Part shown: positions 3,064 through 17,711 of the stretch, one piece after another
How the letters are laid out: every line of letters begins with the position of its first letter
Numbering within the stretch: the stretch's first letter is position 1
From: a virus
Lineage: Duplodnaviria > Heunggongvirae > Uroviricota > Caudoviricetes
IMG/VR virus record: IMGVR_UViG_2778261639_000005
Direction: 5' to 3' (one strand)
DNA: 17,896 nt
Made by a program: the position numbers and the translations under genes
Notes under the pieces: generated by a model
Seen by the model: the letters and a program-made list of their open reading frames with translations, nothing else
What the model was told of the DNA's origin: nothing
Database searches by the model: none

Positions 3064-4345
3064 TGTGCCTCAGGCGCGATTTCTTTCAATGCCCCATAAA
3101 TTTAAAGCCTATATTGCTGGTTTTGGCTCGGGCAAAACATGGGTTGGGTGTGGCGGCATATGCAAGGGGATTTGGGAGCATCCAGGTATAAATCAGGGAT
3201 ATTTTGCGCCAACGTATCCCCAAATTCGCGATATTTTTTACCCTACAGTGGAAGAAGTTGCTGCTGACTGGGGATTGAACGTAAAAATTAATGAGGGAAA
3301 TAAAGAGGTTCACTTTTATTACGGACGCCAGTATCGGGGAACCACTATCTGCAGATCGATGGAGAAGCCACAAACGATCGTCGGTTTCAAAATTGGTAAT
3401 GCGCTGGTGGATGAACTGGACATTTTGCCGAAGGAAAAAGCCAGAACGGCGTGGCGCAAGATAATTGCGCGTATGCGTTATAAGATTGATGGACTTCGCA
3501 ACGGTATTGACGTTACAACCACGCCGGAAGGATTCAAATTTGTCTACGAGCAGTTTGTTAAAGCCGTGCGTGAAAAAACAGAGCTGGCCTCACTGTATGG
3601 TCTGGTGCAGGCATCTACTTTCGATAATGAAAAGAACCTGCCAGCAGATTACATTCCTTCACTTCTTGAATCATACCCTCCAGAGCTGATTAAAGCCTAT
3701 CTTCTAGGACGGTTTACTAACCTGACAAGTGGTACTGTTTACCATCAGTTTGACCGGAAACTGAATAATTGCGAAGAAGTGGAGCAGCCAGGGGAGCCGA
3801 TTTATATTGGGATGGATTTTAACGTTGGAAAGATGGCGGGAATCGTCCATGTGCTGCGTTTGGGGCTTCCATGTGCGGTAACTGAAATCATCAATGCCTA
3901 CGATACGCCGGATATGATCCGCCTCATTAAAGAACGCTTCTGGCTGTATGACGGGCATGATTACCGGAAAGTGAGGGAGATTTATATTTATCCAGATGCT
4001 TCCGGAGATTCCAGAAAATCAAGTAACGCAAGTACGACGGATATAGCCCAGCTTAAGCAGGCAGGTTTTAACGTTGTGGTGAACAGCTCGAACCCGCCAG
4101 TAAAAGATCGCGTTAACTCAATGAATGCAATGTTCTGCAATGCCAATGGTGAGCGTCGCTATAAAGTTAATGTGAAGCGTTGTCCGGTATATGCCGAATC
4201 TCTGGAGCAACAGGTCTGGGATGATAAGGGGGAGCCTGATAAAAAATCTGGCAATGATCACCCGAATGATGCCGGAGGTTATTTCATCGTTAAGCAATTC
4301 CCTATTGTCAAACCGACCGGAAGAGTCACATCACTTCGGATTTAA
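3044..4345 (+). CDS. Terminase large subunit
   Basis: Walker A motif AGFGSGKT near the N-terminus. AAGGAG SD at 3030-3035 lies 8 nt before ATG 3044; the track start 3035 is GTG with ATG 3038 too close to the SD. Follows the small subunit and precedes the portal. Confidence 0.85.
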   Translation: MISPTLNVPQARFLSMPHKFKAYIAGFGSGKTWVGCGGICKGIWEHPGINQGYFAPTYPQIRDIFYPTVEEVAADWGLNVKINEGNKEVHFYYGRQYRGTTICRSMEKPQTIVGFKIGNALVDELDILPKEKARTAWRKIIARMRYKIDGLRNGIDVTTTPEGFKFVYEQFVKAVREKTELASLYGLVQASTFDNEKNLPADYIPSLLESYPPELIKAYLLGRFTNLTSGTVYHQFDRKLNNCEEVEQPGEPIYIGMDFNVGKMAGIVHVLRLGLPCAVTEIINAYDTPDMIRLIKERFWLYDGHDYRKVREIYIYPDASGDSRKSSNASTTDIAQLKQAGFNVVVNSSNPPVKDRVNSMNAMFCNANGERRYKVNVKRCPVYAESLEQQVWDDKGEPDKKSGNDHPNDAGGYFIVKQFPIVKPTGRVTSLRI

Positions 4346-4347
4346 TT

Positions 4348-5754
4348 ATGGCTGATATATCAACACCCAACCTCGACTATAACGATATGCTGGAGGCGTG
4401 GGATATTAACGACGCATTGATGGGCGGTACGCTTGAAATGCGCAGGCAGGGGGAAAATTATCTCCCCAAATGGCCTAATGAAGATGAAGACGCTTATAAA
4501 AAACGCCTGTCTGTGGCTACGTTACTTCCTGTGTATGAAGAAAGCATCAAACAAAATATTGGGCGCATATTTGCAGAGCCGACAGTATTGAGTGAGGAAA
4601 CGCCGGAAAAAATCAGGGAATATGCAGAAAATATCGACATGGAGGGGAGCCGACTGGATGTGTGGGCGCAGCAATTTTTCAGTCTCGCATTTCAGTATGG
4701 TGTGGCACATGCGCTGGTGGACTATCCACGAACGGATATGAACGAGATTCGGACAAAAGCCGATGAAAACGCGGCCGGTGGTCGCCCGTACGTTACGATG
4801 CTGAATCCACGCCAGGTTATTGGATGGAAATCGAAAGTTGAAAAAGGGAAAGTTGTTCTCACTGATTTGCGTATAAAAGAGGTCATCATTATTGATGGTG
4901 ATGATTTCGGGCAGAAGAAGGTGGAGCAGATCCGCCATATTATGCCCCGTCGAGTAGAAATTTATCGACGCAGCGAAGGTACTAATGGCGAATCTGTCTG
5001 GATGCTTCATGAGTCATGGAATACCAGCCGTGATGATATTCCTCTGGTAACACTGTATACGAAGAAAACAGGGTTTATGCGTGGTACACCGCCATTGCTT
5101 AATCTTGGCTTGCTGAATATCAAGCACTGGCAAAGCCAGAGCGAGCAGGACAATATTCTTCATGTTGCCCGCGTTCCATTGCTGGTGGCCTACGGGCTGG
5201 ACAGGAATGAAGAACTGACGGTTGGTGCATCCACGGCTACGATTTTTGAGGACAGAACAAAAAATGGCCTCGAATATGTTGAACATAGTGGCGCAGCGAT
5301 AGAATCTGGCGAAACATCACTTGAGAAGCTGGAAAATCAGATGCGTCATTCCGGCGCTAAACTTCTGCGGGCTGAAAATACATCCACCAAATCTGTTGAT
5401 CAGACTAATGAAGAGCGGATGCAGGAACACTCGCCGCTTTATACAATGGCGAACTCCCTCGAAGATGCCCTCGATAATATTCTCCAGATAATGGCGGAAT
5501 GGAGCGGAGAGAGTTGCGGTGGCAATGTGGATGTGCGCACTGAACTGGATGTATCTGCCCAGGTGTTTGACTCATCCTCCGCGCTGGCTGTTCAGTCATT
5601 GCGTCAGGGCGGTGATATACGTCAGATTGATGCGGTTCGGGTGTTGCAGGCGTTGAAATTTATCGATCAGGATTCCCGTCCAGAGGAAGTGATCGATGAA
5701 TTAAAAAATCAGAGTGTAATGCTGATGGAAATCAATGATGCAAACCGTGAATGA
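4348..5754 (+). CDS. Portal protein (putative)
   Basis: 468-aa ORF immediately after the terminase large subunit (stop TAA 4343-4345, ATG 4348) and overlapping the start of the head morphogenesis gene. Size and position are canonical for a portal; no diagnostic motif was verified by eye. Confidence 0.65.
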   Translation: MADISTPNLDYNDMLEAWDINDALMGGTLEMRRQGENYLPKWPNEDEDAYKKRLSVATLLPVYEESIKQNIGRIFAEPTVLSEETPEKIREYAENIDMEGSRLDVWAQQFFSLAFQYGVAHALVDYPRTDMNEIRTKADENAAGGRPYVTMLNPRQVIGWKSKVEKGKVVLTDLRIKEVIIIDGDDFGQKKVEQIRHIMPRRVEIYRRSEGTNGESVWMLHESWNTSRDDIPLVTLYTKKTGFMRGTPPLLNLGLLNIKHWQSQSEQDNILHVARVPLLVAYGLDRNEELTVGASTATIFEDRTKNGLEYVEHSGAAIESGETSLEKLENQMRHSGAKLLRAENTSTKSVDQTNEERMQEHSPLYTMANSLEDALDNILQIMAEWSGESCGGNVDVRTELDVSAQVFDSSSALAVQSLRQGGDIRQIDAVRVLQALKFIDQDSRPEEVIDELKNQSVMLMEINDANRE

Positions 5755-6850
5755 ACGGCTGCGTGATGAATCAATTGCTCATGCAGTCTGGATATCCCGC
5801 TATAGCACTGGCGTGGCTGCCAGAATGGTGAAAATACTGAATGACAGCGATGCGGAACTTACTGCTCGCCTGCTGATAGCACTGGACAGCCTCGATCCAG
5901 GTAGTTTTACCGTTAAGCGCCTGGAGTCACTTCTGGCGAGCGTCAGAGAGGTTAACCGCACTGCTATTAACAGCATGTTTACCAGTCTCTCCGGAGAGCT
6001 GAACGAGCTGGCAATTTATGAGGCTGGTTATCAGTTAAGTCTGTTTGATTCTATGCTACCTGATTTTGTTGCTGATGTTCACCCTCTGGTTGGTATCTCT
6101 CCTGATGCACTTTATGCCGCTGCAATGGCGCGACCATTCCAGGGACGACTGCTCAGTGAGTGGGCCTCAGATCTTGAGGCGGATCGGCTCAGACGCATAA
6201 CAAATACAGTGCGTCAGGGTTTTTTGCTGGGGGATACCAATGAGCAGATCGCAAGAAAAATTCGGGGACATGTCAGTAAGGGATTTCAGGATGGTGCATT
6301 GCAGATGAGCCGGGCTAATGCGGCCAGCATTGCAAAAACAGCGGTTGGACATCTTGCTGCTACTGCCCGTGAGAGTTTTGCCAGCGCGAATAATGATTTG
6401 ATTAAGGGTAAGCAATGGTTATCAACGCTTGATAATCGTACTACGCCACAATGTCGAATCAGGGATCGCCTCAAATATACGCTGAATAATAAACCTGTAG
6501 GTCACAGCGTGCCTTATTTGCAGGGGCCGGGAAAAATTCATTTCTGCTGCCGCTCAACGGAAACGTTCATTCTGAAATCAGCGAAGGAACTGGGTATTGA
6601 TGTTCGCGATATTTCCCCGGCTGAGCGGGCCAGCATGGATGGCGTGGTGGCCGGAGATACAACCTACAGGGAATGGTTTTTGCGTCAGCCTTACACCAGA
6701 CAAAAACAGATTGTGGGGGAAAGCCGAGCAAAGCTGATTCGGGATGGTGGTATGTCGCCAGATGAATTTTACACCGATAAAGGCGAATGGCTGACGCTGA
6801 AGCAGCTCCGTGAGCGTGATGCACAGGTATTCAGAAAAGCAGGGATTTAA
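5735..6850 (+). CDS. Head morphogenesis protein (Mu gpF / SPP1 gp7 family)
   Basis: C-terminal region DNRTTPQCRIRDRL...HSVPYLQGPGKIHFCCRST fits the Phage_Mu_F signature (D-x-R-T...C-R...P...H-x-x-C-R). Located directly after the portal. Stop TAA 6848-6850. Confidence 0.7.
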   Translation: MMQTVNERLRDESIAHAVWISRYSTGVAARMVKILNDSDAELTARLLIALDSLDPGSFTVKRLESLLASVREVNRTAINSMFTSLSGELNELAIYEAGYQLSLFDSMLPDFVADVHPLVGISPDALYAAAMARPFQGRLLSEWASDLEADRLRRITNTVRQGFLLGDTNEQIARKIRGHVSKGFQDGALQMSRANAASIAKTAVGHLAATARESFASANNDLIKGKQWLSTLDNRTTPQCRIRDRLKYTLNNKPVGHSVPYLQGPGKIHFCCRSTETFILKSAKELGIDVRDISPAERASMDGVVAGDTTYREWFLRQPYTRQKQIVGESRAKLIRDGGMSPDEFYTDKGEWLTLKQLRERDAQVFRKAGI

Positions 6851-6869
6851 ATAAATCATTTATTACAAC

Positions 6870-6895
6870 AGGCTACCTTCGGGTGGCCTTTTTTA
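6870..6895 (+). terminator. Intrinsic terminator-like hairpin with UUCG tetraloop and T-run
   Basis: AGGCTACC(6870-6877)-TTCG-GGTGGCCT(6882-6889) forms an 8-bp stem with one G-U pair, followed by TTTTT. Lies 20 nt after the head morphogenesis stop. Confidence 0.6.
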
Positions 6896-6954
6896 TTGCT
6901 GCGATCCGGATGGTGAGCAGCGTAACTGTCGGAAGACTTAAACCAGGTACTAAT

Positions 6955-7719
6955 ATGAAACTGAAAACGGTCGAGATTAACGGAAAACAATACGCAGAAA
7001 TTGATACTGCTGGCCTGCCAGTTTATGTGCACGACGATGGTAAAGAAATTGGCTTCGATGCACCGCTGGCGACAAAAAAAATTACAGAGCTTAATGGCGA
7101 GGCAAAAAATCATCGCCTGGCTAAAGAAGCTGCAGAGGAAAAACTGGCTAAGTTTGCCGCTATCGAAGACCCGAAGAAGGCGATCGAGGCACTGGAAATG
7201 CTGTCAAAAATCGACCAGAAAAAGCTGCTCGATGCGGGACAGGTTGACCAGGTTAAGGCAGAAATTACGAAAAATTTTCAGCAGCAATTAGATGAAGAAA
7301 AGCAACGCTCTCAGATGCTGGAGAAGCAGCTTTACGATTCTATGATTGGCGGTAGTTTTGCGGGTTCAAAATATATTGCCGATAAAATTGCGATCCCGGC
7401 AGATTTATTACAAGCCCGCTTCGGGCAGGCATTCAAAGTGGAAGAAGGGAGGATCGTTGCTTATGACGCTTCCGGCAACAAAATTTATTCCCGCGCGAAG
7501 CCTGGCGAACTGGCGCAGTTTGATGAGGCGCTGGAGTTCCTTGTCGAAAATTACCCTCAGAAAGACTACATCCTGAAAGCCAGTGGCAACAATGGCGGCG
7601 GCTCCCGTCCGACACAGCATGATATTGGTCAGAAAACGATGAAACGCTCTGCTTTTGATGCACTGGATGTTGCAGGTAAGCAAAACGCATTGAAAGACGG
7701 TATCACAATCGTTGATTAA
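6955..7719 (+). CDS. Putative scaffolding protein
   Basis: Hydrophilic, Lys/Glu/Ala-rich, predicted coiled-coil protein between the head morphogenesis and major capsid genes. Start taken as ATG 6955 because track start 6883 (GTG) lies inside the terminator hairpin; ATG 6910 is an alternative. Confidence 0.45.
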   Translation: MKLKTVEINGKQYAEIDTAGLPVYVHDDGKEIGFDAPLATKKITELNGEAKNHRLAKEAAEEKLAKFAAIEDPKKAIEALEMLSKIDQKKLLDAGQVDQVKAEITKNFQQQLDEEKQRSQMLEKQLYDSMIGGSFAGSKYIADKIAIPADLLQARFGQAFKVEEGRIVAYDASGNKIYSRAKPGELAQFDEALEFLVENYPQKDYILKASGNNGGGSRPTQHDIGQKTMKRSAFDALDVAGKQNALKDGITIVD

Positions 7720-9958: not shown

Positions 9959-10339
9959 ATGGCAAAGGCATGGGATATAGAACCGTCAATATTTGCCGGG
10001 ATGATTGAGGAAGATGTAGGGCTGAAGATTCGCTACATCGCTATGCAGATTCTTACTGCTATTGATATTGCTGCTCCGGTTGATACCGGACGTTTCAGAA
10101 ATAACAACCTGGTGTCGTTACAGCATCCCGATTTTGGTATATCTGATAACGTGGATCCGAACGGTACGATTGCTGTTCAGCGTGGGATCGGGGTTATTTC
10201 GAAAGCTGCAAATTACGGGGTTATTTATATCCAGAATAACCTTCCTTATGCAGAGGCTCTTGAAAACGGTCATTCACAACAAGCGCCAACTGGCGTGTAT
10301 GCCAACGCTTTTCATGGTGTTTTACAGGCTTACAAATGA
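9959..10339 (+). CDS. Tail component protein, HK97 gp10-like
   Basis: Motif IAAPVDTGRFRNNN matches the conserved P-x-DTG-x-L/F-R-x-S/N signature of the HK97 gp10 family. AGGAGAG SD upstream; ATG immediately after the upstream stop. Confidence 0.55.
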   Translation: MAKAWDIEPSIFAGMIEEDVGLKIRYIAMQILTAIDIAAPVDTGRFRNNNLVSLQHPDFGISDNVDPNGTIAVQRGIGVISKAANYGVIYIQNNLPYAEALENGHSQQAPTGVYANAFHGVLQAYK

Positions 10340-10728
10340 AGTTTACTGAAATCAGAAATACGGTTATTTCCAGAATGACGGCACAGACGATTATTGATGG
10401 AAAAGACGTATTGTATCCGAACGGGCCAACGTTCGATCCTTCCGGTAAGTTAATCTGGGCGCGGTTAAGTAATATTCCCGGGCAGGCTGGAGTTAATGAA
10501 ATTGGCGCGGGGCCGGTTGTTTATCGCACGGGGATAATCATTATTCAGTTATTTGTCCCCGCAGGTTCTGGTTCAAAACTCATTACTGAGACAGCCGATA
10601 AATTGCGGGAACTGTTTGAGTTTCAGGATGACGATCGTCTCAGTTACCAGGCTGTTTCCTCAATAGCCGTTGGCGAAAAGAATGGCTGGTTCCAGCTTAA
10701 TCTTCAAATTCCATATCGCGCGCTCTAG
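10336..10728 (+). CDS. Tail completion / tail terminator-like protein (putative)
   Basis: 130-aa ORF with an ATGA start-stop overlap with the upstream gene; positioned just before the major tail protein. Confidence 0.4.
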   Translation: MKFTEIRNTVISRMTAQTIIDGKDVLYPNGPTFDPSGKLIWARLSNIPGQAGVNEIGAGPVVYRTGIIIIQLFVPAGSGSKLITETADKLRELFEFQDDDRLSYQAVSSIAVGEKNGWFQLNLQIPYRAL

Positions 10729-10754: not shown

Positions 10755-11717
10755 GTGAGTTCAGGTGCAAAGGTTATCTCGGCATTTATCCGGGAGACGG
10801 TTGCAGGCACTACGCCAGCAAGTGGTGACTGGAGTTTATTAAAACGCACAAGCTGGGGAGTAAAACCCACCCAGAATAAAGGCGAAAATAATGAGATTGG
10901 TGGCTCCCGGATGGCTCAGGGGGCGACGCCTGGCACTGTGGATGTCGGCGGTGATGTTGGTACCAAATTTCGCTGGGGTCAACATGATGATTTTCTTGCA
11001 TCCTGTTTCGGCGCGGAATGGTCAGGCGATTCTCTGACAATGGGGAATGAGCGAATAACATTTTCTCTGGCGACCTATGCGTCCGATGTCGGAATTGCCT
11101 CTGTCGTCAGAGGAGCGCAGGTTGGCTCATGGAAAATGCAGATCCCTAACGACGGCGATATTACAGCGACCGTAACCTTTGCCGGACTGGACTGGGAATC
11201 AAAGGCCGATGATACGAATTTTATCAAAGGCGAACCTGTGGATAGTGCAGGAAAGCTACGTTATTCGTTTAAGGAGGTTTCAGCAGTAAGCCTGAATGGT
11301 GTTGCCGGAGGTAACGGTTTTTGTATCGACAGTTTTGATATTCAGTTCGATAACAAACTCCAGACACAGCGTTGTATCGGGACTGGCTCGCCTTATGCAG
11401 GAGCAAATATTCCGACTACTTTTACACCGTCCGGTACGGTGACGCTTTCATGGTCTAAAGCCGCGTGGGAAATCTGGAGTAAAACACTGACTGGAGAAAC
11501 AGTTCCGTTCAGCTTCACGCTTTCGAATGGAGAGGGGGCATACACTTTCAGTTTCCCGAAGGTTCAGGTGTCAGGTGAATGGCCTGATGGGGGTAATAGC
11601 GACATTATCCAGGTTCAATTGAGCATTACCGCAGCAGATGAAGCACCTACGATAACCAGAAAAAAAAATTCCCCGGCTGCCGTGATCGCAAAAGCCAGTG
11701 CTGAGGCGATTAGTTGA
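10755..11717 (+). CDS. Major tail (tube) protein
   Basis: GTG start 10755 with GGAGG SD at 10744-10748; 320 aa, Gly/Ser/Thr-rich and beta-rich; immediately upstream of the chaperone and tape measure genes. Confidence 0.6.
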   Translation: MSSGAKVISAFIRETVAGTTPASGDWSLLKRTSWGVKPTQNKGENNEIGGSRMAQGATPGTVDVGGDVGTKFRWGQHDDFLASCFGAEWSGDSLTMGNERITFSLATYASDVGIASVVRGAQVGSWKMQIPNDGDITATVTFAGLDWESKADDTNFIKGEPVDSAGKLRYSFKEVSAVSLNGVAGGNGFCIDSFDIQFDNKLQTQRCIGTGSPYAGANIPTTFTPSGTVTLSWSKAAWEIWSKTLTGETVPFSFTLSNGEGAYTFSFPKVQVSGEWPDGGNSDIIQVQLSITAADEAPTITRKKNSPAAVIAKASAEAIS

Positions 11718-11765: not shown

Positions 11766-12227
11766 ATGAGGTTATGGATGTTTATTCTTAATCAGAAAAT
11801 TATCATTGGTGGAGAACGCTGGTTTACGCCAATGAAGGACTTAAAACCTGTAGACGGGTTAAAACTGTTGGTGGCAAGCAGCGATAACGATCAGTATCGC
11901 TCCCGTAATGCATTAATCCGTCGCCACATTGAGAAAATGGATGCCAGTTTGCACGTCGGAACGAAGGAGTTTGATATTTCAAAGGTTTCCGAGGTGGATT
12001 CTGTTGATGATTTACTCATTGATAATGCCGCTCGTTATCTGCTGAAAGACTGGAAAGGGGTTGGTGAACTGGTTAATGGTGTTGAGGTTGCACTGGAATA
12101 TACGGCAGAACGAGGGATCGCGCTGCTTAAGCAGAATCCAGAGTTGTACTGGCAGATCCTTGCAGAAGCAGCCAGCATCGCCCAGGGTAAAGAGCAGCAG
12201 AAGCAGGATACGATAAAAAAGCCATAG
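11766..12227 (+). CDS. Tail assembly chaperone (G-like)
   Basis: ATG 11766 with GGGGGA SD 8 nt upstream; 153-aa acidic protein between major tail and tape measure genes; a slippery heptamer sits 4 nt before its stop TAG 12225-12227. Confidence 0.6.
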   Translation: MRLWMFILNQKIIIGGERWFTPMKDLKPVDGLKLLVASSDNDQYRSRNALIRRHIEKMDASLHVGTKEFDISKVSEVDSVDDLLIDNAARYLLKDWKGVGELVNGVEVALEYTAERGIALLKQNPELYWQILAEAASIAQGKEQQKQDTIKKP

Positions 12228-12535
12228 CTGCCCAGCGGTGGTTATCGGAGTTCGGGGGAGAAAGGGGGGAAAAGGCAAGATGGAAGCGAGAAAAACTCAG
12301 GTTGCCACCGATACCGGAACCAGAAATAGACCCGGTGCTTAAGGAGTTGTTGTACGCCTATTCGGTAATATCCCGTGCCCGACGTTATGCTGGAATGGCT
12401 GGGGTGCCTTTGCCTTTATCTCTGACAGAGATAAATGAATATTTAGCCACTCATCCGGTATTGATTGAGCGCGATGAATTTGAAGCAGTGATCTTTGCAC
12501 TGGATGACCAGTATTTTCAGGAGCAGTGTGTGTAG
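11766..12535 (+). CDS. Tail assembly chaperone frameshift fusion (GT-like), predicted -1 shift at 12215-12221
   Basis: The -1 frame is open from 12191 to the TAG at 12533-12535 and overlaps the end of the G-like ORF. The A_AAA_AAG heptamer at 12215-12221 is phased as AAA AAG in the zero frame. The track ORF 12302..12535 is the downstream part of this frame. Confidence 0.5.
12215..12221 (+). other. Programmed -1 ribosomal frameshift slippery site A_AAA_AAG
   Basis: Heptamer AAAAAAG with correct zero-frame phasing near the 3' end of the chaperone gene, and an open -1 frame downstream. Confidence 0.55.
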
Positions 12536-12655
12536 TTGTTAATTACGTACACTCTGTTACAGAGATGTGATGGTGTCTTTAATTAAATCGATGATGCTCC
12601 TGGAGAAAAGCATTGCGTGGCCTCGTAATCGCTATATCTACTATTATGTCGCCTG

Positions 12656-12680
12656 AAACCCACTTCGCGGTGGGTTTTTT
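12656..12680 (+). terminator. Terminator-like hairpin between the chaperone and tape measure genes
   Basis: AAACCCAC(12656-12663)-TTCGCG-GTGGGTTT(12670-12677) gives a perfect 8-bp stem followed by TTT, 20 nt upstream of the tape measure SD AGGAG (12687-12691). Confidence 0.55.
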
Positions 12681-12700
12681 GTTGTCAGGAGTTTTAATAA

Positions 12701-15700
12701 ATGGCAGAGCAAACCTCGCGTCTCGCAATAATTATTGATAGCACTGGAGCGAAAAATAATGCTGACAATCTGACCTCCTCATTAGTCAAAATGACGCAGG
12801 CTGGGGAAACTGCTGCAAATAGCGCAGGGAAAGTGACTAAGGCAACAGAAGATGAGAAGAACGCGCTCGCAAAATTAAAAGCAGCTATTGATCCAGTTGG
12901 TGCCGCAATTGATACTGTCGGTCGACGCTATTCTGAATTAAAGAAATTTTTCGATAAAGGGCTTATTGATAAAGAAGAATATGAATTTCTTGTCCGTAAA
13001 CTTAATGAAACCACAGAGGAATTGAGCGGGGTTGCGCAAGCGCAGAGAGAAGCCGAGAAGGCCGGAAAACTTGCTGCCGCCCAGCAGGAAGCGCAGGCTC
13101 AGGCCTTTCAAAGAATGCTGGACAAGATCGACCCTCTGGCTGCGGCGCTAAGAAATCTTGAACAACAGCATGATGAACTTAATGCTGCGTTTGCATCCGG
13201 GAAAATAAATGGTTCTCAGTTTGAGAATTATAGCCGAAAAATACAGGAAACACGGCGAGAGCTTACCGGAGAGGCTCAGGCAGAGCGAGAAGCAGCAAAA
13301 GCGCATGATGAACAGGTTGTTGCTTTGCAACGTCTGATTGCTCAACTTGATCCTGTCGGAACTGCTTTTAATCGTCTGGTAGAACAACAGAAACAGCTCA
13401 ATGAAGCAAAAGCTAAGGGGATGCTTTCTCCTGAAATGTATGAGGAGCTTTCTGGAAAACTTCGTGCTATGCGGAGTGAGCTTGAGGTTACTCAATCACA
13501 ATTAAGCAAAACCGGAATGTCGGCAAAACAAACGGCTTTTGCTATGCGCATGTTGCCTGCACAAATGACGGATATTGTTGTTGGGTTGTCCACTGGTCAG
13601 TCGCCATTTATGGTGTTAATGCAGCAGGGCGGCCAGCTAAAAGATATGTTCGGTGGGATTGGCCCGGCGATCAAAGGTGTAGGTTCTTATGTGCTGGGAT
13701 TAATTAATCCTTTTACCCTGGCCGCAGCAGCCGTTGGGGTCTTAGGACTGGCTTACTATAAAGGCTCTCAGGAGCAGGACGAATTTAATAAATCTCTTAT
13801 TCTTACCGGAAATCAGTTGGGGACAACCAGCGGGCAATTGGGCGATATAGCTCAACGTGCCGGGAATGCGGCTGATTCGACAACTGGTGCTGCGGCGGCA
13901 GTATTAAATCAGCTTGTGCGTTCGGGAAAGGTAGCGAGCAGTTCGCTGGAGCAAGTGACGACAGCGATAGTAAAAACGAGCGAAGTAACAGGAATATCAA
14001 CCGAACAACTGGTTAATGACTTCAATGAAATTGCAAAGGATCCTGTCAGTGCCATATCAAAACTTAATGATCAGTACCATTTTCTGACACTTGCGACTTA
14101 TAACCAGATTAAGGCGCTACAGGATGAAGGGAACCAGCAGGAGGCCGCCCGCATTGCGACAGAAGAATACTCATCCTCAATGATCCAGCGCACCAACCAG
14201 ATTAAAGAAAATCTTGGTTATCTTGAGACTGCATGGAAAGCTGTCGCAGACTCCGCAAAATGGGCATGGGATTCCATGCTGGATATTGGCCGTGAGGCCT
14301 CCCTTGATCAAAAAATCTCAGATGTTCTCCGTCAAATTGATGAAATAGAAAAAAATACCCGACCCGGAGTTTTCGGGTTAGGTGGCATTGGAGATGGCGG
14401 AGCTCAAAATAAAAGGCTGGCACGATTAAAGCAGCAATTGGGCGTACTTCAAGCAGAAAAAATTGCTCAGGACGTACTAAATTCATCAATAAACGATTAC
14501 AACAAGCGACAACAGGAAGGAATTGAACTCAGACAGAGAGCAGATGCCTTTTCAAAACAATATCAGACCCGGGAGCAGCAGAGAGCTAGTGAACTTGCAA
14601 AACTGGAAAAGCTAAAGAATCAGTATTCAAAGGAAGAATATAATAATCTTATCGCTCAAATAAATGAGCGTTATAAAGATCCAAAGCAACCAAAGGCGAA
14701 AGGTTATTCTGATGATGCAGCCCAACGAATGATTGATCATCTGAATCAACAGAATGCGTTACTAAGTTCACAAGCTGAGTTGACCGTTAAATTAAGTTCC
14801 TCTGAACAGGAACTGGTTAAGTGGCGTCAGCGGATTGCCGACCTAGAGTCACGACCATCAACGAAATTAACCCAGGATCAGAAATCGCTTCTCTTACACC
14901 GGGAAGAAATAACCGCGTTGATGGAGAAAAATGTTGCGATTGAAAAAAATAACAGGCTAATCAAGGAATCCGCCGAAATAACAGCATGGCGTGATTCATT
15001 GCAGGCTTCGATTGATAATCGTCAGCAGGGGTATGATATTCAGATTGCTGGTTATGGGGTTGGCGATAAAAATCAGCAACGCCAGCAGGAATTACTGCGG
15101 ATTGAACATGGATATAACAATCAGCGTCTGCAACTTGAACGTGACTATGCAGATAAATCCCGTGGAATGTCAGATCATGTTTTTCAAGAGAAAATGCAGG
15201 CTCTGAATGATGCTCTGGAACGGGAAAAAGAAATTGTCAGACAGAAAAACGAGCAGCTCGATATTCAGGCAGGAGACTGGGTTAGTGGTGCCTCCCAGGG
15301 ATTCAATAACTGGCTGGATGACACTAAGGATATCAGTGAGCAGATAAAATCAACCACGACTCAGATGTTTGATGGGATGACCGATGCGCTGGGTGATTTT
15401 GTCACGACAGGCAAGGCAAATTTTCGTTCTTTCGCTACTTCCGTGATTTCGGATCTTAGTCGAATAGCATTAAAGGCTTCAATTACTGGGATTTTCGACA
15501 GCATTAGTAACAGTTCTTCTGGGGGGATTTTAGGAACTATCGGGAGTGCTATTAGTAAATTTATTCCGAATGCAAAGGGCGGTGTTTATGAGTCTCCGTC
15601 ATTGAGCACGTATTCGAACGGTATTTATGATTCCCCGCAATTTTTTGCTTTTGCAAAAGGGGCTGGTGTTTTTGGTGAGGCTGGACCGGAAGCCATTATG

Positions 15701-15934
15701 CCATTAACACGAACTTCCGATGGTTCTCTTGGTGTCAGAGCTATTAATAGTAAAAGTGGTAATGGAGGCGGAGATATTACCTATGCCCCTGTATACCAAA
15801 TCACTATTCAAAATGACGGCCAGAATGGAGAGATTGGCCCTCAGGCAATAAAAGCACTTATGGGGATGGTTGATCAGCGGGTGCAGGGCAATCTGTTAAA
15901 TATGCGACGTGATGGGGGAATGTTAAGTGGCTAA
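12701..15934 (+). CDS. Tail tape measure protein (lambda H-like, 1077 aa)
   Basis: Long coiled-coil N-terminal half, central hydrophobic segment [39 protein letters not shown], and C-terminal [16 protein letters not shown]...RRDGGMLSG, which resemble lambda gpH as I recall it. Sits after the chaperone pair and before the M-like gene. Confidence 0.9.
12863..13510 (+). repeat. Three tandem protein-level repeats of about 65-75 aa in the tape measure N-terminal region
   Basis: Repeated pattern (I/L)DP(V/L)(G/A)...EL(S/T)G(V/E)AQA(Q/E)REA(E/A)KA at roughly aa 57-121, 137-201 and 209-270 of the tape measure protein. Confidence 0.5.
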
Positions 15935-16265
15935 TACGGAAGAATTTCACTGGTTACCAGAGGATGGAATGAAAACAGAAAATAAACCATCGATAAAAAC
16001 TGTAAGATTTGGTGATGGTTATGAGCAACGAAGTCCAAATGGACTTAATCATTCTCTGCGCGTTTTCACCTGTGATTTCAAAGTTGAGGCGAATGAACGT
16101 GATTCATTTGAAAAATTTTTAGCCCGGCATGAAGGCTATAAATCTTTTTTTTGGCGCCCGCCGGGTATTAACAGAAAAATCAGAGTGGTGTGTCGAACGT
16201 GGTCAGCGACAGAACATATCACCTATACCGATTTTTCGTGTCAGTTTGACGAAGTGGTGATCTGA
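15927..16265 (+). CDS. M: Minor tail protein M (lambda gpM-like)
   Basis: Motif [16 protein letters not shown] and ...KSFFWRPP...FDEVV match lambda M as recalled (VRFGDGYSQRAPAGLN ... KSFLWTPP ... FEQVV). GTG start overlaps the tape measure stop by 8 nt. 112 aa. Confidence 0.85.
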
Positions 16266-16963
16266 TGCAGGACATACAACAGGAAACGCTGAATGAATGC
16301 ATTCGTGCGGAGCAGTCGGCCAGCGTGGTGCTCTGGGAAATCGACCTGACCGAGGTAGGCGGGGATCGCTACTTTTTCTGCAATGAGCAGAACGAGAAAG
16401 GAGAGTCTGTCACCTGGCAGAGTCGGCAGTATCAGGCCTATCCCATTCAGGGGCGTGGATTTGAGATGAACGGCAAAGGTGCCAGTGCAAGGCCAACGCT
16501 GAAAGTCTCTAATCTGCACGGCATGGTCACCGGGATGGCGGAAGACCTGCAGAGTCTGGTCGGCGGAACGGTGGTCAGGCGTAAGGTTTACGCCCGTTTT
16601 CTGGATGCGGTGAACTTCGTCAACGGAAACAGTGACGCCGATCCGGAGCAGGAGGTGATCAGCCGCTGGCGTATTGAGCAGTGCAGCGAACTGAGCGCGG
16701 TCAGTGCCTCCTTTGTACTGTCCACGCCGACGGAAACGGACGGCGCTGTTTTTCCGGGGCGCATCATGCTTGCTAATACCTGCACCTGGACCTATCGCGG
16801 TGATGAGTGCGGTTATCACGGTCCGGCGGTCGCGGATGAATATGACCAGCCAACGTCCGATATCACGAAGGATAAATGCAGCAAATGCCTGAGCGGCTGT
16901 AAGTTTCGCAATAACGTCGGCAACTTTGGCGGCTTCCTTTCCATTAACAAACTTTCGCAGTAA
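16265..16963 (+). CDS. L: Minor tail protein L (lambda gpL-like)
   Basis: [33 protein letters not shown]... and the C-terminal Cys cluster CTWTYRGDECGYHGP...CSKCLSGC closely resemble lambda L. ATG overlaps the M stop by 1 nt. Confidence 0.95.
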   Translation: MQDIQQETLNECIRAEQSASVVLWEIDLTEVGGDRYFFCNEQNEKGESVTWQSRQYQAYPIQGRGFEMNGKGASARPTLKVSNLHGMVTGMAEDLQSLVGGTVVRRKVYARFLDAVNFVNGNSDADPEQEVISRWRIEQCSELSAVSASFVLSTPTETDGAVFPGRIMLANTCTWTYRGDECGYHGPAVADEYDQPTSDITKDKCSKCLSGCKFRNNVGNFGGFLSINKLSQ

Positions 16964-16967
16964 ACCC

Positions 16968-17711
16968 ATGACAGAGACAGAATCAGCGATTCTGGCGCAC
17001 GCCCGGCGATGTGCGCCAGCGGAGTCGTGCGGCTTCGTGGTGAGAACGCCGGAGGGGGAAAGATATTTTCCCGGCGTGAATATCTCCGGTAGGCCGGAGG
17101 CGTATTTCCGGATGTCGCCGGAGGACTGGCTGCAGGCAGAAATGCAGGGTGAGATTGTGGCGCTGGTCCACAGCCACCCCGGTGGTCTGCCCTGGCTGAG
17201 TGAGGCTGACCGGCGGCTGCAGGTGCAGAGTGATTTGCCGTGGTTGCTGGTCTGCCGGGGGGCGATTCATAAGTTCCGCTGTGTGCCGCATCTCACCGGG
17301 CGGCGCTTTGAGCACGGGGTGACGGACTGTTACACGCTGTTCCGGGACGCTTACCATCTGGCGGGAATTGAGATGCCGGATTTTCATCGCGGGGATGACT
17401 GGTGGCGTCACGGTCAGAATCTCTATCTGGATAATCTGGAGGCAACGGGTTTTTACCGTGTCGTACTGACAGAGGCGCAGCCTGGCGATGTGCTGCTGTG
17501 CTGTTTTGGTTCATCGGTGCCGAATCACGCCGCCATTTACTGCGGCGACGGCGAGCTGCTGCACCATATTCCTGAACAACTGAGCAAACGAGAGAGGTAT
17601 ACCGACAAATGGCAGCGACGCACACACTCCCTCTGGCGTCACCGGGCATGGCGCGCATCTGCCTTTACGGGGATTTACAACGATTTGGCCGCCGCATCGA
17701 CCTTCGTGTGA
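16968..17711 (+). CDS. K: Tail tip assembly protein K (lambda gpK-like; JAMM/MPN plus NlpC/P60 motifs)
   Basis: ATG 16968 lies 4 nt after the L stop. JAMM motif HSHPGGLPWLSEAD (HxH-x7-S-x2-D), then a Cys (VTDCYTLF) and His (PNHAAIYCGDGELLHH) consistent with an NlpC/P60 domain. The track start 16926 is an upstream in-frame extension overlapping L. Confidence 0.9.
   Translation: MTETESAILAHARRCAPAESCGFVVRTPEGERYFPGVNISGRPEAYFRMSPEDWLQAEMQGEIVALVHSHPGGLPWLSEADRRLQVQSDLPWLLVCRGAIHKFRCVPHLTGRRFEHGVTDCYTLFRDAYHLAGIEMPDFHRGDDWWRHGQNLYLDNLEATGFYRVVLTEAQPGDVLLCCFGSSVPNHAAIYCGDGELLHHIPEQLSKRERYTDKWQRRTHSLWRHRAWRASAFTGIYNDLAAASTFV

Follow-up and report, generated by a model that had tools for sequence, protein, structure and literature searches.

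Three divergent helical repeat units precede the core of a Rac-type prophage tape measure protein and probably lengthen its ruler

The window analysed here, a stretch of 17,896 nucleotides from a caudoviricete record (IMGVR_UViG_2778261639_000005), carries a series of tail genes, all of them on the + strand. A gene for the tail terminator protein (10336..10728) is followed by one for the tail tube protein (10755..11717), the stacked subunit measured by the tape measure protein (TMP). The next reading frame (11766..12227), for whose product no Pfam match was found, is assigned as an analogue of the tail assembly chaperone G from its position between the tube and TMP genes, and its C-terminal part corresponds to ydaY of Escherichia coli K-12. 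A slippery heptamer, A AAA AAG (12215..12221), lies in the G frame, 3 nt before the G stop codon, and the -1 frame, encoding the T extension (12221..12535), is open for 104 codons past the slip site; a slip at this heptamer would yield the predicted GT fusion. The TMP gene itself (12701..15934, 1077 aa) is located between this G/GT frameshift pair and genes encoding homologues of the minor tail proteins M (15927..16265; Pfam Phage_min_tail) and L (16265..16963; Phage_tail_L, E 1.4e-98) and of the tail tip protein K (16926..17711; JAB and NlpC/P60 domains). Phage lambda shares the order G, GT frameshift, H, M, L, K, but its tube protein is of the gpV family, whereas that encoded here belongs to the Phage_tube_2 family.

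The product of 12701-15934 matches the lambda-family TMP domains TMP_2, TMP_4 and Tape_meas_lam_C/TIGR01541, all over cutoff. TMP_2 (PF06791; 273.6 bits for a gathering cutoff of 30.2, E 1.4e-81) covers aa 267-471 (13499..14113), which align with lambda H 54-256, and its core motif MRMLPAQxTD...QQGGQxKDxFGG is common to both proteins. Tape_meas_lam_C (PF09718; 91.4 bits, cutoff 23) occupies aa 858-932 (15272..15496), within a TIGR01541 match extending over aa 705-1040 (218.8 bits, cutoff 104.75), so that the architecture is that of lambda gpH all the way from MRMLPAQ to the C-terminal end (TMP_2 to Tape_meas_lam_C). One difference is the TMP_4 domain (PF24622, E 2e-24) at aa 671-748 (14711..14944), for which lambda H falls short of a match. 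By BLASTP, residues 270-1077 are colinear with residues 57-850 of lambda H (E 2e-77, 28% identity), and chain H of PDB 8IYK, lambda gpH, is matched with E 2.6e-70. Genes annotated as TMP and 98.5-99.8% identical to this one occur in phage and prophage records and also in E. coli genomes. The TMP_2 core, the C-terminal region, the colinearity with gpH and the gene order all support its identification as a lambda-type TMP.

Gene order and nucleotide identity mark the locus as the late region, still intact, of a Rac-type E. coli prophage. It is syntenic with the K-12 Rac remnants trkG-ynaK-ydaY-ynaA-lom-stfR (gene maps of K-12 and MSI001), and positions 12601-13635 are 99.9% identical to the K-12 ynaA region. 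K-12 Rac has lost the genes from terminase to tube by deletion, whereas the module is intact here, as in E. coli MSI001. Positions 12601-14000 are matched at 100% by E. coli MSI001, ET201 and HCM-24C-3. In K-12, ydaY is a remnant of the G chaperone gene, and ynaA, a pseudogene that is truncated, joined to a remnant of lom and close to an IS5, corresponds to the first ~311 codons of the TMP gene, all three repeat units described below included. This explains the pseudogene ynaA as what is left of the Rac tape measure, namely its N-terminus with the repeats; our search of the literature on Rac, ynaA and tape measure returned no description of repeats.

The N-terminal region of the protein begins with a non-repeat leader (aa 1-55; 12701..12865), in the position of lambda H aa 1-56, and continues with an array of three tandem units: R1 (aa 56-135; 12866..13105), which at 80 aa is 7 residues longer than the other two, R2 (aa 136-208, 73 aa; 13106..13324), and R3 (aa 209-281, 73 aa; 13325..13543), whose divergent C-terminal part overlaps the start of TMP_2. 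The periods of 80 and 73 aa are given by a conserved D-P at aa 64, 144 and 217. Each unit consists of LxxLxxxIDPxxxA, a helix A, a short G-x-(I/L) loop and a long helix B, and the three align in register and free of gaps over ~60 residues, with D-P and G invariant and 30-38% protein identity. Smith-Waterman comparison gave z-scores of 17.2 (R1/R2), 13.2 (R2/R3) and 10.7 (R1/R3), the observed scores being reached by 0 of 1000 shuffles, and an HMM built from the units detects exactly three copies in the 1077-aa protein (iE 1e-24 to 1e-39). These results bear out three tandem repeats, which an earlier note on this DNA had placed at 12863-13510 (aa 55-270). Its unit size of 65-75 aa at the N-terminus was close, but the units actually measure 80, 73 and 73 aa and stand behind the 55-aa leader; likewise, of its motif DP...ELxGxAQAxREAxKA, R1 and R2 have every element, but R3 only DP...G...EL, beyond which it diverges. 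The leader, several residues of which are invariant among homologues, shows no significant similarity to the units (z <= 1.3), which rules it out as a fourth copy. Scans of positions 12000-16500 for DNA repeats (TRF and seed-extension) found nothing relevant, and the units share only 41-46% of their nucleotides (30-33% at third codon positions). The array is therefore visible at the protein level only, which indicates that the duplication is old.

Several observations back, indirectly, the earlier claim that the units are coiled coils. Hydrophobic residues recur with a period of 3.48 residues over aa 56-281 (z = 10.7; 0 of 500 shuffles), and the resulting stripe keeps a single phase across all 226 residues (z of 10.7 for the whole against 2.3-3.8 for each unit). 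In addition, aa 18-281 show weak matches to SMC coiled coils, and the spacings between units cluster at 66, 73, 80 and 87 aa, namely in steps of one heptad. The single phase and the heptad-step unit lengths are as expected of a continuous coiled coil. An AF2 model of aa 1-340, built from a 14-sequence alignment, is almost all helix; its confidence is low (mean pLDDT 49.8) and it was therefore used for secondary structure only. The modelled helix is broken for 5 residues at each of the conserved G-x-I loops (aa 86-90, 166-170 and 239-243), around which local confidence is best (pLDDT 63-73). SHOCT (PF09851), considered as the core of the unit, scored 17.5 bits with the whole protein, 25.7 with the array and 19.7 with the unit consensus, all under the cutoff of 27, and the likeness of the unit core to this domain is a resemblance only.

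Comparison with lambda gpH locates the difference in size between the two proteins. The lengths given earlier, 1077 aa here and 853 aa for lambda H, are both correct (reading frame and NC_001416, respectively), and 213 of the 224 residues extra over lambda H sit N-terminal to the shared core; without aa 56-269 the protein would be 863 aa long. The extra length is thus the repeat array, as had been proposed. An equivalent number of repeats in lambda H, which had been named as evidence against this proposal, was not found: the 56-aa leader of lambda H runs straight into the core, and the unit HMM detects no N-terminal copy in it, its one match being an incomplete unit further inside (aa 412-450, iE 1.9e-6), in a segment colinear with aa ~626-660 of the prophage protein, where the unit match is non-significant.

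The unit is far from exclusive to this prophage. Its profile matches 321 representative clusters or proteins (E <= 1e-3), most of which have the size of a TMP and 1-5 copies at the N-terminus; among homologues at large the number is usually 0-5. Among phage TMPs, three copies are found in the 1077-aa protein and in two Klebsiella phages, two in HK639 and Gungnir39, one in Vibrio phage H20 and two further Klebsiella phages, and none in lambda. The TMPs of HK639, Erwinia phage Gungnir39, Vibrio phage H20 and the Klebsiella prophages ST405-OXA48phi1.3, 5 LV-2017 and Kpn_R1 all carry the unit before the TMP_2 core, in one to three copies, as does chain B of PDB 9L9P, a 957-aa TMP. Several unit-bearing relatives have another C-terminal half and DUF1833-type tail-tip genes instead of M-L-K. 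In 95 proteins with a TMP_2 core, picked for at least one copy and showing large scatter, each copy goes with a core start 60.7 aa later (r = 0.70, p = 4.5e-15) and with 56.7 aa more of total length (r = 0.62), and copy number has no bearing on the length downstream of the core start (slope -2.8, p = 0.60). These length statistics come from matches in the representative library, the homologues retrieved with the N-terminal 340 aa being all fragments or at most 600 aa long. Some one-copy proteins have a core start at 200-430, which points to missed divergent copies or other inserts. In one relative, P0003, the array is that of the 1077-aa protein with the middle unit duplicated, the units of the two proteins (X and W, respectively) being 85% (X1/W1), 59% (X2/W2), 64% (X3/W2) and 60% (X4/W3) identical. 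A 2581-aa protein with 22 apparent stretches (P0030) was discarded as an unrelated surface-repeat protein that the iterated unit HMM did not confirm. The unit is shown here to be a module found widely in TMP_2-family tape measures, one whose copy number differs between homologues and goes along with the length of the N-terminus.

We consider it likely that the TMP of this Rac-type lambdoid prophage contains three ancient helical spacer modules of 73-80 aa, situated between leader and core, that lengthen the ruler. TMP_2-family tape measures would gain or lose such modules as whole units. At the end nearest the head, the modules would prolong the helical ruler around which tube subunits would polymerise, aided by G/GT. 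That the length of the tape measure sets that of the tail has been established since the 1980s, and the rule of Katsura reportedly amounts to 0.15 nm per amino acid. In phage TP901-1, the value is 0.145 nm per amino acid, with the TMP fully extended (PMC5099701), and the lambda tail has 32 rings with a rise of 42 Å around a gpH trimer (PMC10721106). For TP901-1 and lambda, proportional changes in tail length upon deletion or addition of TMP units are on record. The longer tail predicted here follows from this rule: with 0.145-0.15 nm for each residue, an excess of ~214-224 residues would add about 31-34 nm, or ~8 tube rings, each unit being worth about 11-12 nm, and the tail would reach ~40 rings and a tube of 165-170 nm, where lambda has 32 rings and 134 nm. 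The ring estimate takes lambda's rise per ring, which is an assumption since the tube protein is of another family than gpV. Two relatives with electron microscopy data, Vibrio phage H20 (TMP of 970 aa, tail of ~150 nm) and Klebsiella phage Kpn_R1 (1141 aa, 178 nm), fit ~0.155 nm per amino acid, although these data are weak. The nearly identical GenBank records listed as 'phages' are prophages predicted in silico; in the literature, a search for them and for electron microscopy led only to a survey of prophages carried out in silico, which covers the vB_EcoS-* records, and to nothing for SPF_0923.

Other readings of the array have to be weighed. The units might be hairpins, each helix-loop-helix folded back on itself, or make up a head-proximal domain near the terminator or connector, and would then contribute far less than 0.15 nm for each residue, in which case the tail would be about as long as 863 aa dictate. 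The modelled helix break in every unit, at the very loops that are predicted best, and the consistent sub-threshold likeness of this region to SHOCT-type helix-turn-helix motifs speak for such a fold, and in TP901-1 ~127 terminal TMP residues make no contribution to length (PMC5099701). We nevertheless find it unlikely, as the unbroken hydrophobic phase over 226 residues and the heptad-step unit lengths are expected of one uninterrupted coiled coil, the six helices of a hairpin trimer would probably be a tight fit in the lumen of a siphophage tube, and the reported tails of one- and three-copy relatives scale, on weak data, with total TMP length. Alternatively, the units could be repeated docking sites for G/GT, the terminator or, after ejection, partners in the host or its periplasm, copy number serving valency and length being a by-product. 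The conserved D-P, G and E-L positions exceed the needs of a pure spacer, and a canonical G/GT pair is encoded directly upstream of the TMP gene; Xu et al. are said to have reported in 2014 that G/GT bind along gpH, which counts for this reading. It seems to us quite improbable, given that lambda and many family members work with zero or one copy and that the same unit occurs with different tail-tip modules (M-L-K or DUF1833-type), which argues against a specific docking partner. Finally, an artefact of low-complexity, A/E/Q/K-rich coiled-coil composition, suggested by the abundance of A, E, L, Q and K in the array and its weak matches to unrelated coiled-coil families, is refuted and has next to no probability, since shuffles that keep composition never reach the observed scores, the units align in register and free of gaps with D-P and G invariant, the unit HMM finds three copies, and orthologous units elsewhere are 59-85% identical, unit for unit.

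Spacer modules that lengthen the ruler thus remain our preferred reading, and they provide a concrete prediction for intact Rac-type phages, namely ~40 tube rings and ~11 nm per unit. The unit is not modelled by current domain libraries and recurs, in variable copy number, in hundreds of TMP clusters. Beyond this single protein, we see about even chances that it represents an undefined, exchangeable ruler module of TMP_2-family tape measures, one that Pfam-A and NCBIfam lack; whole units of it would come and go, their length adjusted in heptad steps (66, 73, 80 or 87 aa), and tails in this large phage family would change in quanta of ~11 nm (~2.6 rings). If so, it would be a natural means of engineering the length of siphophage tails, and a marker from which past TMP duplications could be reconstructed.

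Conceptually, the array adds little, as TMP length variation driven by repeats has already been published: it is an instance of the known repeat-TMP principle in a different repeat family. In mycobacteriophages, 11-aa TMP repeats vary in copy number and add TMP length (Belcaid et al. 2011, PMC3271669), as the units do here, and in TP901-1 the tail loses 0.145 nm for every residue removed with the repeats (Mahony et al. 2016, PMC5099701). The array does not fit a Belcaid-type 11-aa unit with periodic aromatic residues, its unit being of 73-80 aa and the TRF and DNA scans empty. Whereas the repeats of mycobacteriophages and TP901-1 are short (11 aa or similar) and lie in the central region of the protein, those of the Rac-type TMP are 73-80 aa long, occupy the head-proximal N-terminus and have diverged to 30-38% identity, with no trace at the DNA level.

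The largest ORF of the window (12701-15934, + strand) encodes a 1077-aa tape measure protein (TMP), which scores far above the cutoff of the NCBIfam model TIGR01541 and carries the Pfam domains TMP_2 (aa 267-471, E 1.4e-81), TMP_4 (aa 671-748), and Tape_meas_lam_C (aa 858-932); neither Pfam nor NCBIfam provides a model for aa 1-266. The interval 12863-13510, for which an earlier note had proposed three tandem repeats, corresponds to aa 55-270, and three units can be recognised by their D-P dipeptides (aa 64, 144, and 217), namely R1 (aa 56-135, 80 aa), R2 (aa 136-208, 73 aa), and R3 (aa 209-281, 73 aa), the first exceeding the other two by 7 residues, exactly one heptad. Local alignment of the units with one another gave scores that none of 1000 composition-preserving shuffles matched (z = 17.2 for R1/R2, 13.2 for R2/R3, and 10.7 for R1/R3), in agreement with the proposed number. 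These z-scores, together with the unit-for-unit match with the representative-library protein P0003, exclude a compositional artefact. Aligned in register, the units share invariant D, P, A, L, G, E, K, and E-L positions, although the motif DP...ELxGxAQAxREAxKA, thought in the earlier note to be common to all three, is complete in R1 and R2 only, its ELxGxAQAxREAxKA half having decayed in R3. Neither TRF nor a seed-extension scan detected a DNA-level repeat behind R1-R3, and nucleotide identity among the units is 41-46% (30-33% at third codon positions), which indicates that the triplication is ancient and not the product of recent slippage. The leader, aa 1-55, was rejected as a further copy by local alignment against shuffles.

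The tape measure protein H of phage lambda is 853 aa long in NC_001416, the approximate length given in the earlier note, and the repeats did turn out to be the source of the difference. BLASTP aligned window TMP aa 270-1077 colinearly with lambda H aa 57-850 (28% identity, E 2e-77) and TMP_2 starts at aa 267 in the former and at aa 54 in the latter, so that 213 of the 224 extra residues sit between leader and core; the window TMP minus aa 56-269 would be 863 aa long. An HMM of the unit, iterated to 336 units, found three copies in the window TMP and no N-terminal unit in lambda H, where its one match is partial and internal (aa 412-450, model positions 15-53, iE 1.9e-6), covering the helix A - G loop - helix B core ('LEKYTARQEELNKALKDGKILQADYNTLM'); the two proteins thus differ in repeat number. 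Since this lambda segment aligns with window TMP aa ~626-660, where the unit match (aa ~627-657, nt ~14579-14671) is non-significant (iE 0.27), it adds nothing to the length difference. Klebsiella TMPs have a similar partial internal copy at aa ~470-504, a DNA echo links 12971-13008 with 14630-14667 (71% identity), and a common ancestry of the N-terminal module and the central TMP segment is suggested.

Copy number varies among tape measures. Three units are present in the window TMP, Klebsiella ST405-OXA48phi1.3, and Klebsiella phage 5 LV-2017, two in HK639 and Erwinia phage Gungnir39, one in Vibrio phage H20, Klebsiella ST11-VIM1phi8.2, and Klebsiella ST974-OXA48phi18.2, and none in lambda; several unit-bearing phages have another downstream tail-tip module, so the unit does not go with the lambda M-L-K set alone. 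A profile built from R1-R3 matched, among 1.84 billion representatives, 321 proteins at E <= 1e-3 (62 of them at E <= 1e-10), mostly proteins of 900-1200 aa in which 1-5 stretches close to the N-terminus were matched. In a set of 95 proteins (800 aa or longer) with a TMP_2-like core, chosen for at least one copy and with large scatter, each further copy went with a core start 60.7 aa later (r = 0.70, p = 4.5e-15; medians 54, 136, 235, 267, 317, and 379 for 0 to 5 copies) and 56.7 aa more total length (r = 0.62), while the length downstream of the core start did not depend on copy number (slope -2.8, p = 0.60). In P0003 (1195 aa), the array comprises four units: the first is 85% identical to R1, the fourth is closest to R3 (60%), and R2 is the best match of both the second and the third (59% and 64%), a pattern indicating whole-unit duplication of the middle unit in an array otherwise orthologous to that of the window. 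Among the library proteins, the commonest start-to-start spacing is 73 aa (36 pairs in 28 proteins), with modes at 73, 63, 66, 80, 79, and 87 aa, and the series 66/73/80/87 and 63/70/77/84 advance in 7-residue, one-heptad steps, as a continuous coiled coil would tolerate. Longer arrays also occur in some library proteins, candidate giant tape measures: P0008 (1786 aa) has 14 units at exactly 63-aa spacing (aa 727-1600), and P0110 (aa 123-496) and P0021 (aa 27-457) have 6-7 near-perfectly spaced units each. P0030, with '22 stretches', was a false lead, an unrelated surface-repeat protein.

Hydrophobic residues in aa 56-281 recur with a period of 3.48 residues, coherent along all 226 residues (z = 10.7, 0 of 500 shuffles), and the repeat region has weak SMC coiled-coil matches. 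The loop-helix of the unit (TMP aa 79-101, nt ~12935-13003, and its R2 and R3 equivalents) gave consistent sub-threshold matches to the SHOCT, SHOCT_2, DUF1707 (SHOCT-like), and phage XkdX models, the best SHOCT-type Pfam score being 25.7 bits against a cutoff of 27 and the gathering score of these models never being attained. An AF2 model of low confidence (mean pLDDT 49.8) renders the repeat region almost wholly helical, with helix breaks at the conserved G-x-I loop, one per unit. Such breaks favour the main alternative to an extended array, namely an N-terminal hairpin or folded domain contributing less to length, but a heptad pattern that stays in phase and unit lengths quantised in heptads speak against this arrangement, which we consider unlikely. 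Less probable again is that the units are docking sites for chaperones or other partners, a possible role but not a favoured one, since the protein functions in family members that have a single copy or none and whose tip modules differ.

During tail assembly, the tube protein polymerises around a TMP trimer, assisted by the frameshift chaperone pair G/GT, as far as the head-proximal TMP N-terminus, and tail length follows the TMP at ~0.15 nm per residue. In lambda, 32 gpV rings with a 42 Å rise enclose a gpH trimer with its C-terminus in the tip (PMC10721106), and deletions in TP901-1 gave 0.145 nm per residue, the TMP being fully extended (PMC5099701). If the units are extended in the lumen and lambda's rise per ring applies, the extra 214-224 residues would add, by the ruler rule, ~31-34 nm or ~8 rings (~11-12 nm per unit), for a tube of ~40 rings and 165-170 nm. 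A tail longer than that of lambda, as proposed in the earlier note, is a sound prediction. Vibrio phage H20 (TMP 970 aa, reported EM tail ~150 nm) and Klebsiella phage Kpn_R1 (PQ800145; TMP 1141 aa, encoded at 4001-7426 of the phage sequence L009, with three units and an N-terminus 71.5% identical to the window's; published EM tail 178.3 nm) fit ~0.155 nm per residue, the Kpn_R1 point being weak. The Kpn_R1 figure calls for caution because the describing paper is internally inconsistent, stating a 172-kb genome and Demerecviridae, whereas the record is 50.8 kb and N15-like.

The window also contains a large terminase, a portal (DUF4055), a Mu-F-like protein, and a P22-type coat protein, followed before the TMP gene by a tail terminator and a Phage_tube_2-family tube protein, and 3' of it by M, L, and K homologues. 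Directly upstream of the TMP gene, an ORF at 11766-12227 (153 aa, no Pfam match) has an in-frame A AAA AAG heptamer (12215-12221), ends 3 nt later, and is continued in the -1 frame by 104 further open codons (12221-12535), to judge from sequence the canonical G/GT chaperone arrangement, with a dnaX-type heptamer where lambda has G GGA AAG. Just 3' of the slip site lies a purine-rich tandem, GGGGGAGAAAG x2, at 12254-12275. The T frame ends 165 nt before the TMP ATG, whereas T and H overlap in lambda. Within this gap, 23 nt ahead of the TMP start, a terminator-like hairpin (12655-12678, + strand; 10-bp stem, GAAACCCAC-TTCG-GTGGGTTT, then a T run; RNA fold -18.5 kcal/mol, z = -2.9) could attenuate TMP expression relative to the tube and chaperone genes or be a mosaic-joint relic.

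The TMP gene is 98.5-99.8% identical to those of Salmonella phage SPF_0923 and of E. coli vB_EcoS-* records, which are computational prophage predictions. Window positions 12601-14000 were matched in 1075 of 5426 complete E. coli genomes, the TMP gene being annotated in about a fifth of those searched. In K-12 strains the match is limited to the first 1035 nt (12601-13635, 99.9% identity), annotated as the pseudogene ynaA, which comprises TMP codons 1 to ~311 with all three repeats; at 5101-6033 of our MG1655 region (L010), a lom fragment is joined to it and an IS5-like element lies close by. The G chaperone gene is ydaY of K-12, whose Rac prophage kept only ydaY and ynaA of the late module, having lost small terminase through tail tube, whereas MSI001-type strains kept the full module between ynaK and lom/stf; these gene maps indicate that the window is the intact late region of a Rac-type lambdoid prophage. 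An IS1A lies inside the TMP region of E. coli T28R and an IS5-family element beside a TMP gene truncation in HL15, interruptions that point to repeated decay of Rac-type tail modules at the TMP gene. G+C content reaches 52-59% at 16001-17500, where L and K lie, but is 43-50% elsewhere in the window (43% in the 3' half of the TMP gene), which has the look of a mosaic joint with a Rac-specific TMP on one side and a lambda-like tip module of wider distribution on the other; a long antisense ORF opposite L (16241-16969, 242 aa) probably owes its existence to the high G+C.

The ruler principle and repeat-driven variation in TMP length are already textbook or published matter, tandem repeats being known contributors to such variation (PMC3271669; PMC13585406). 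What is new here, and minor, is a family of long (73-80 aa), diverged, N-terminal repeats, without a model in current domain libraries, whose copy number varies across TMP_2-family tape measures.
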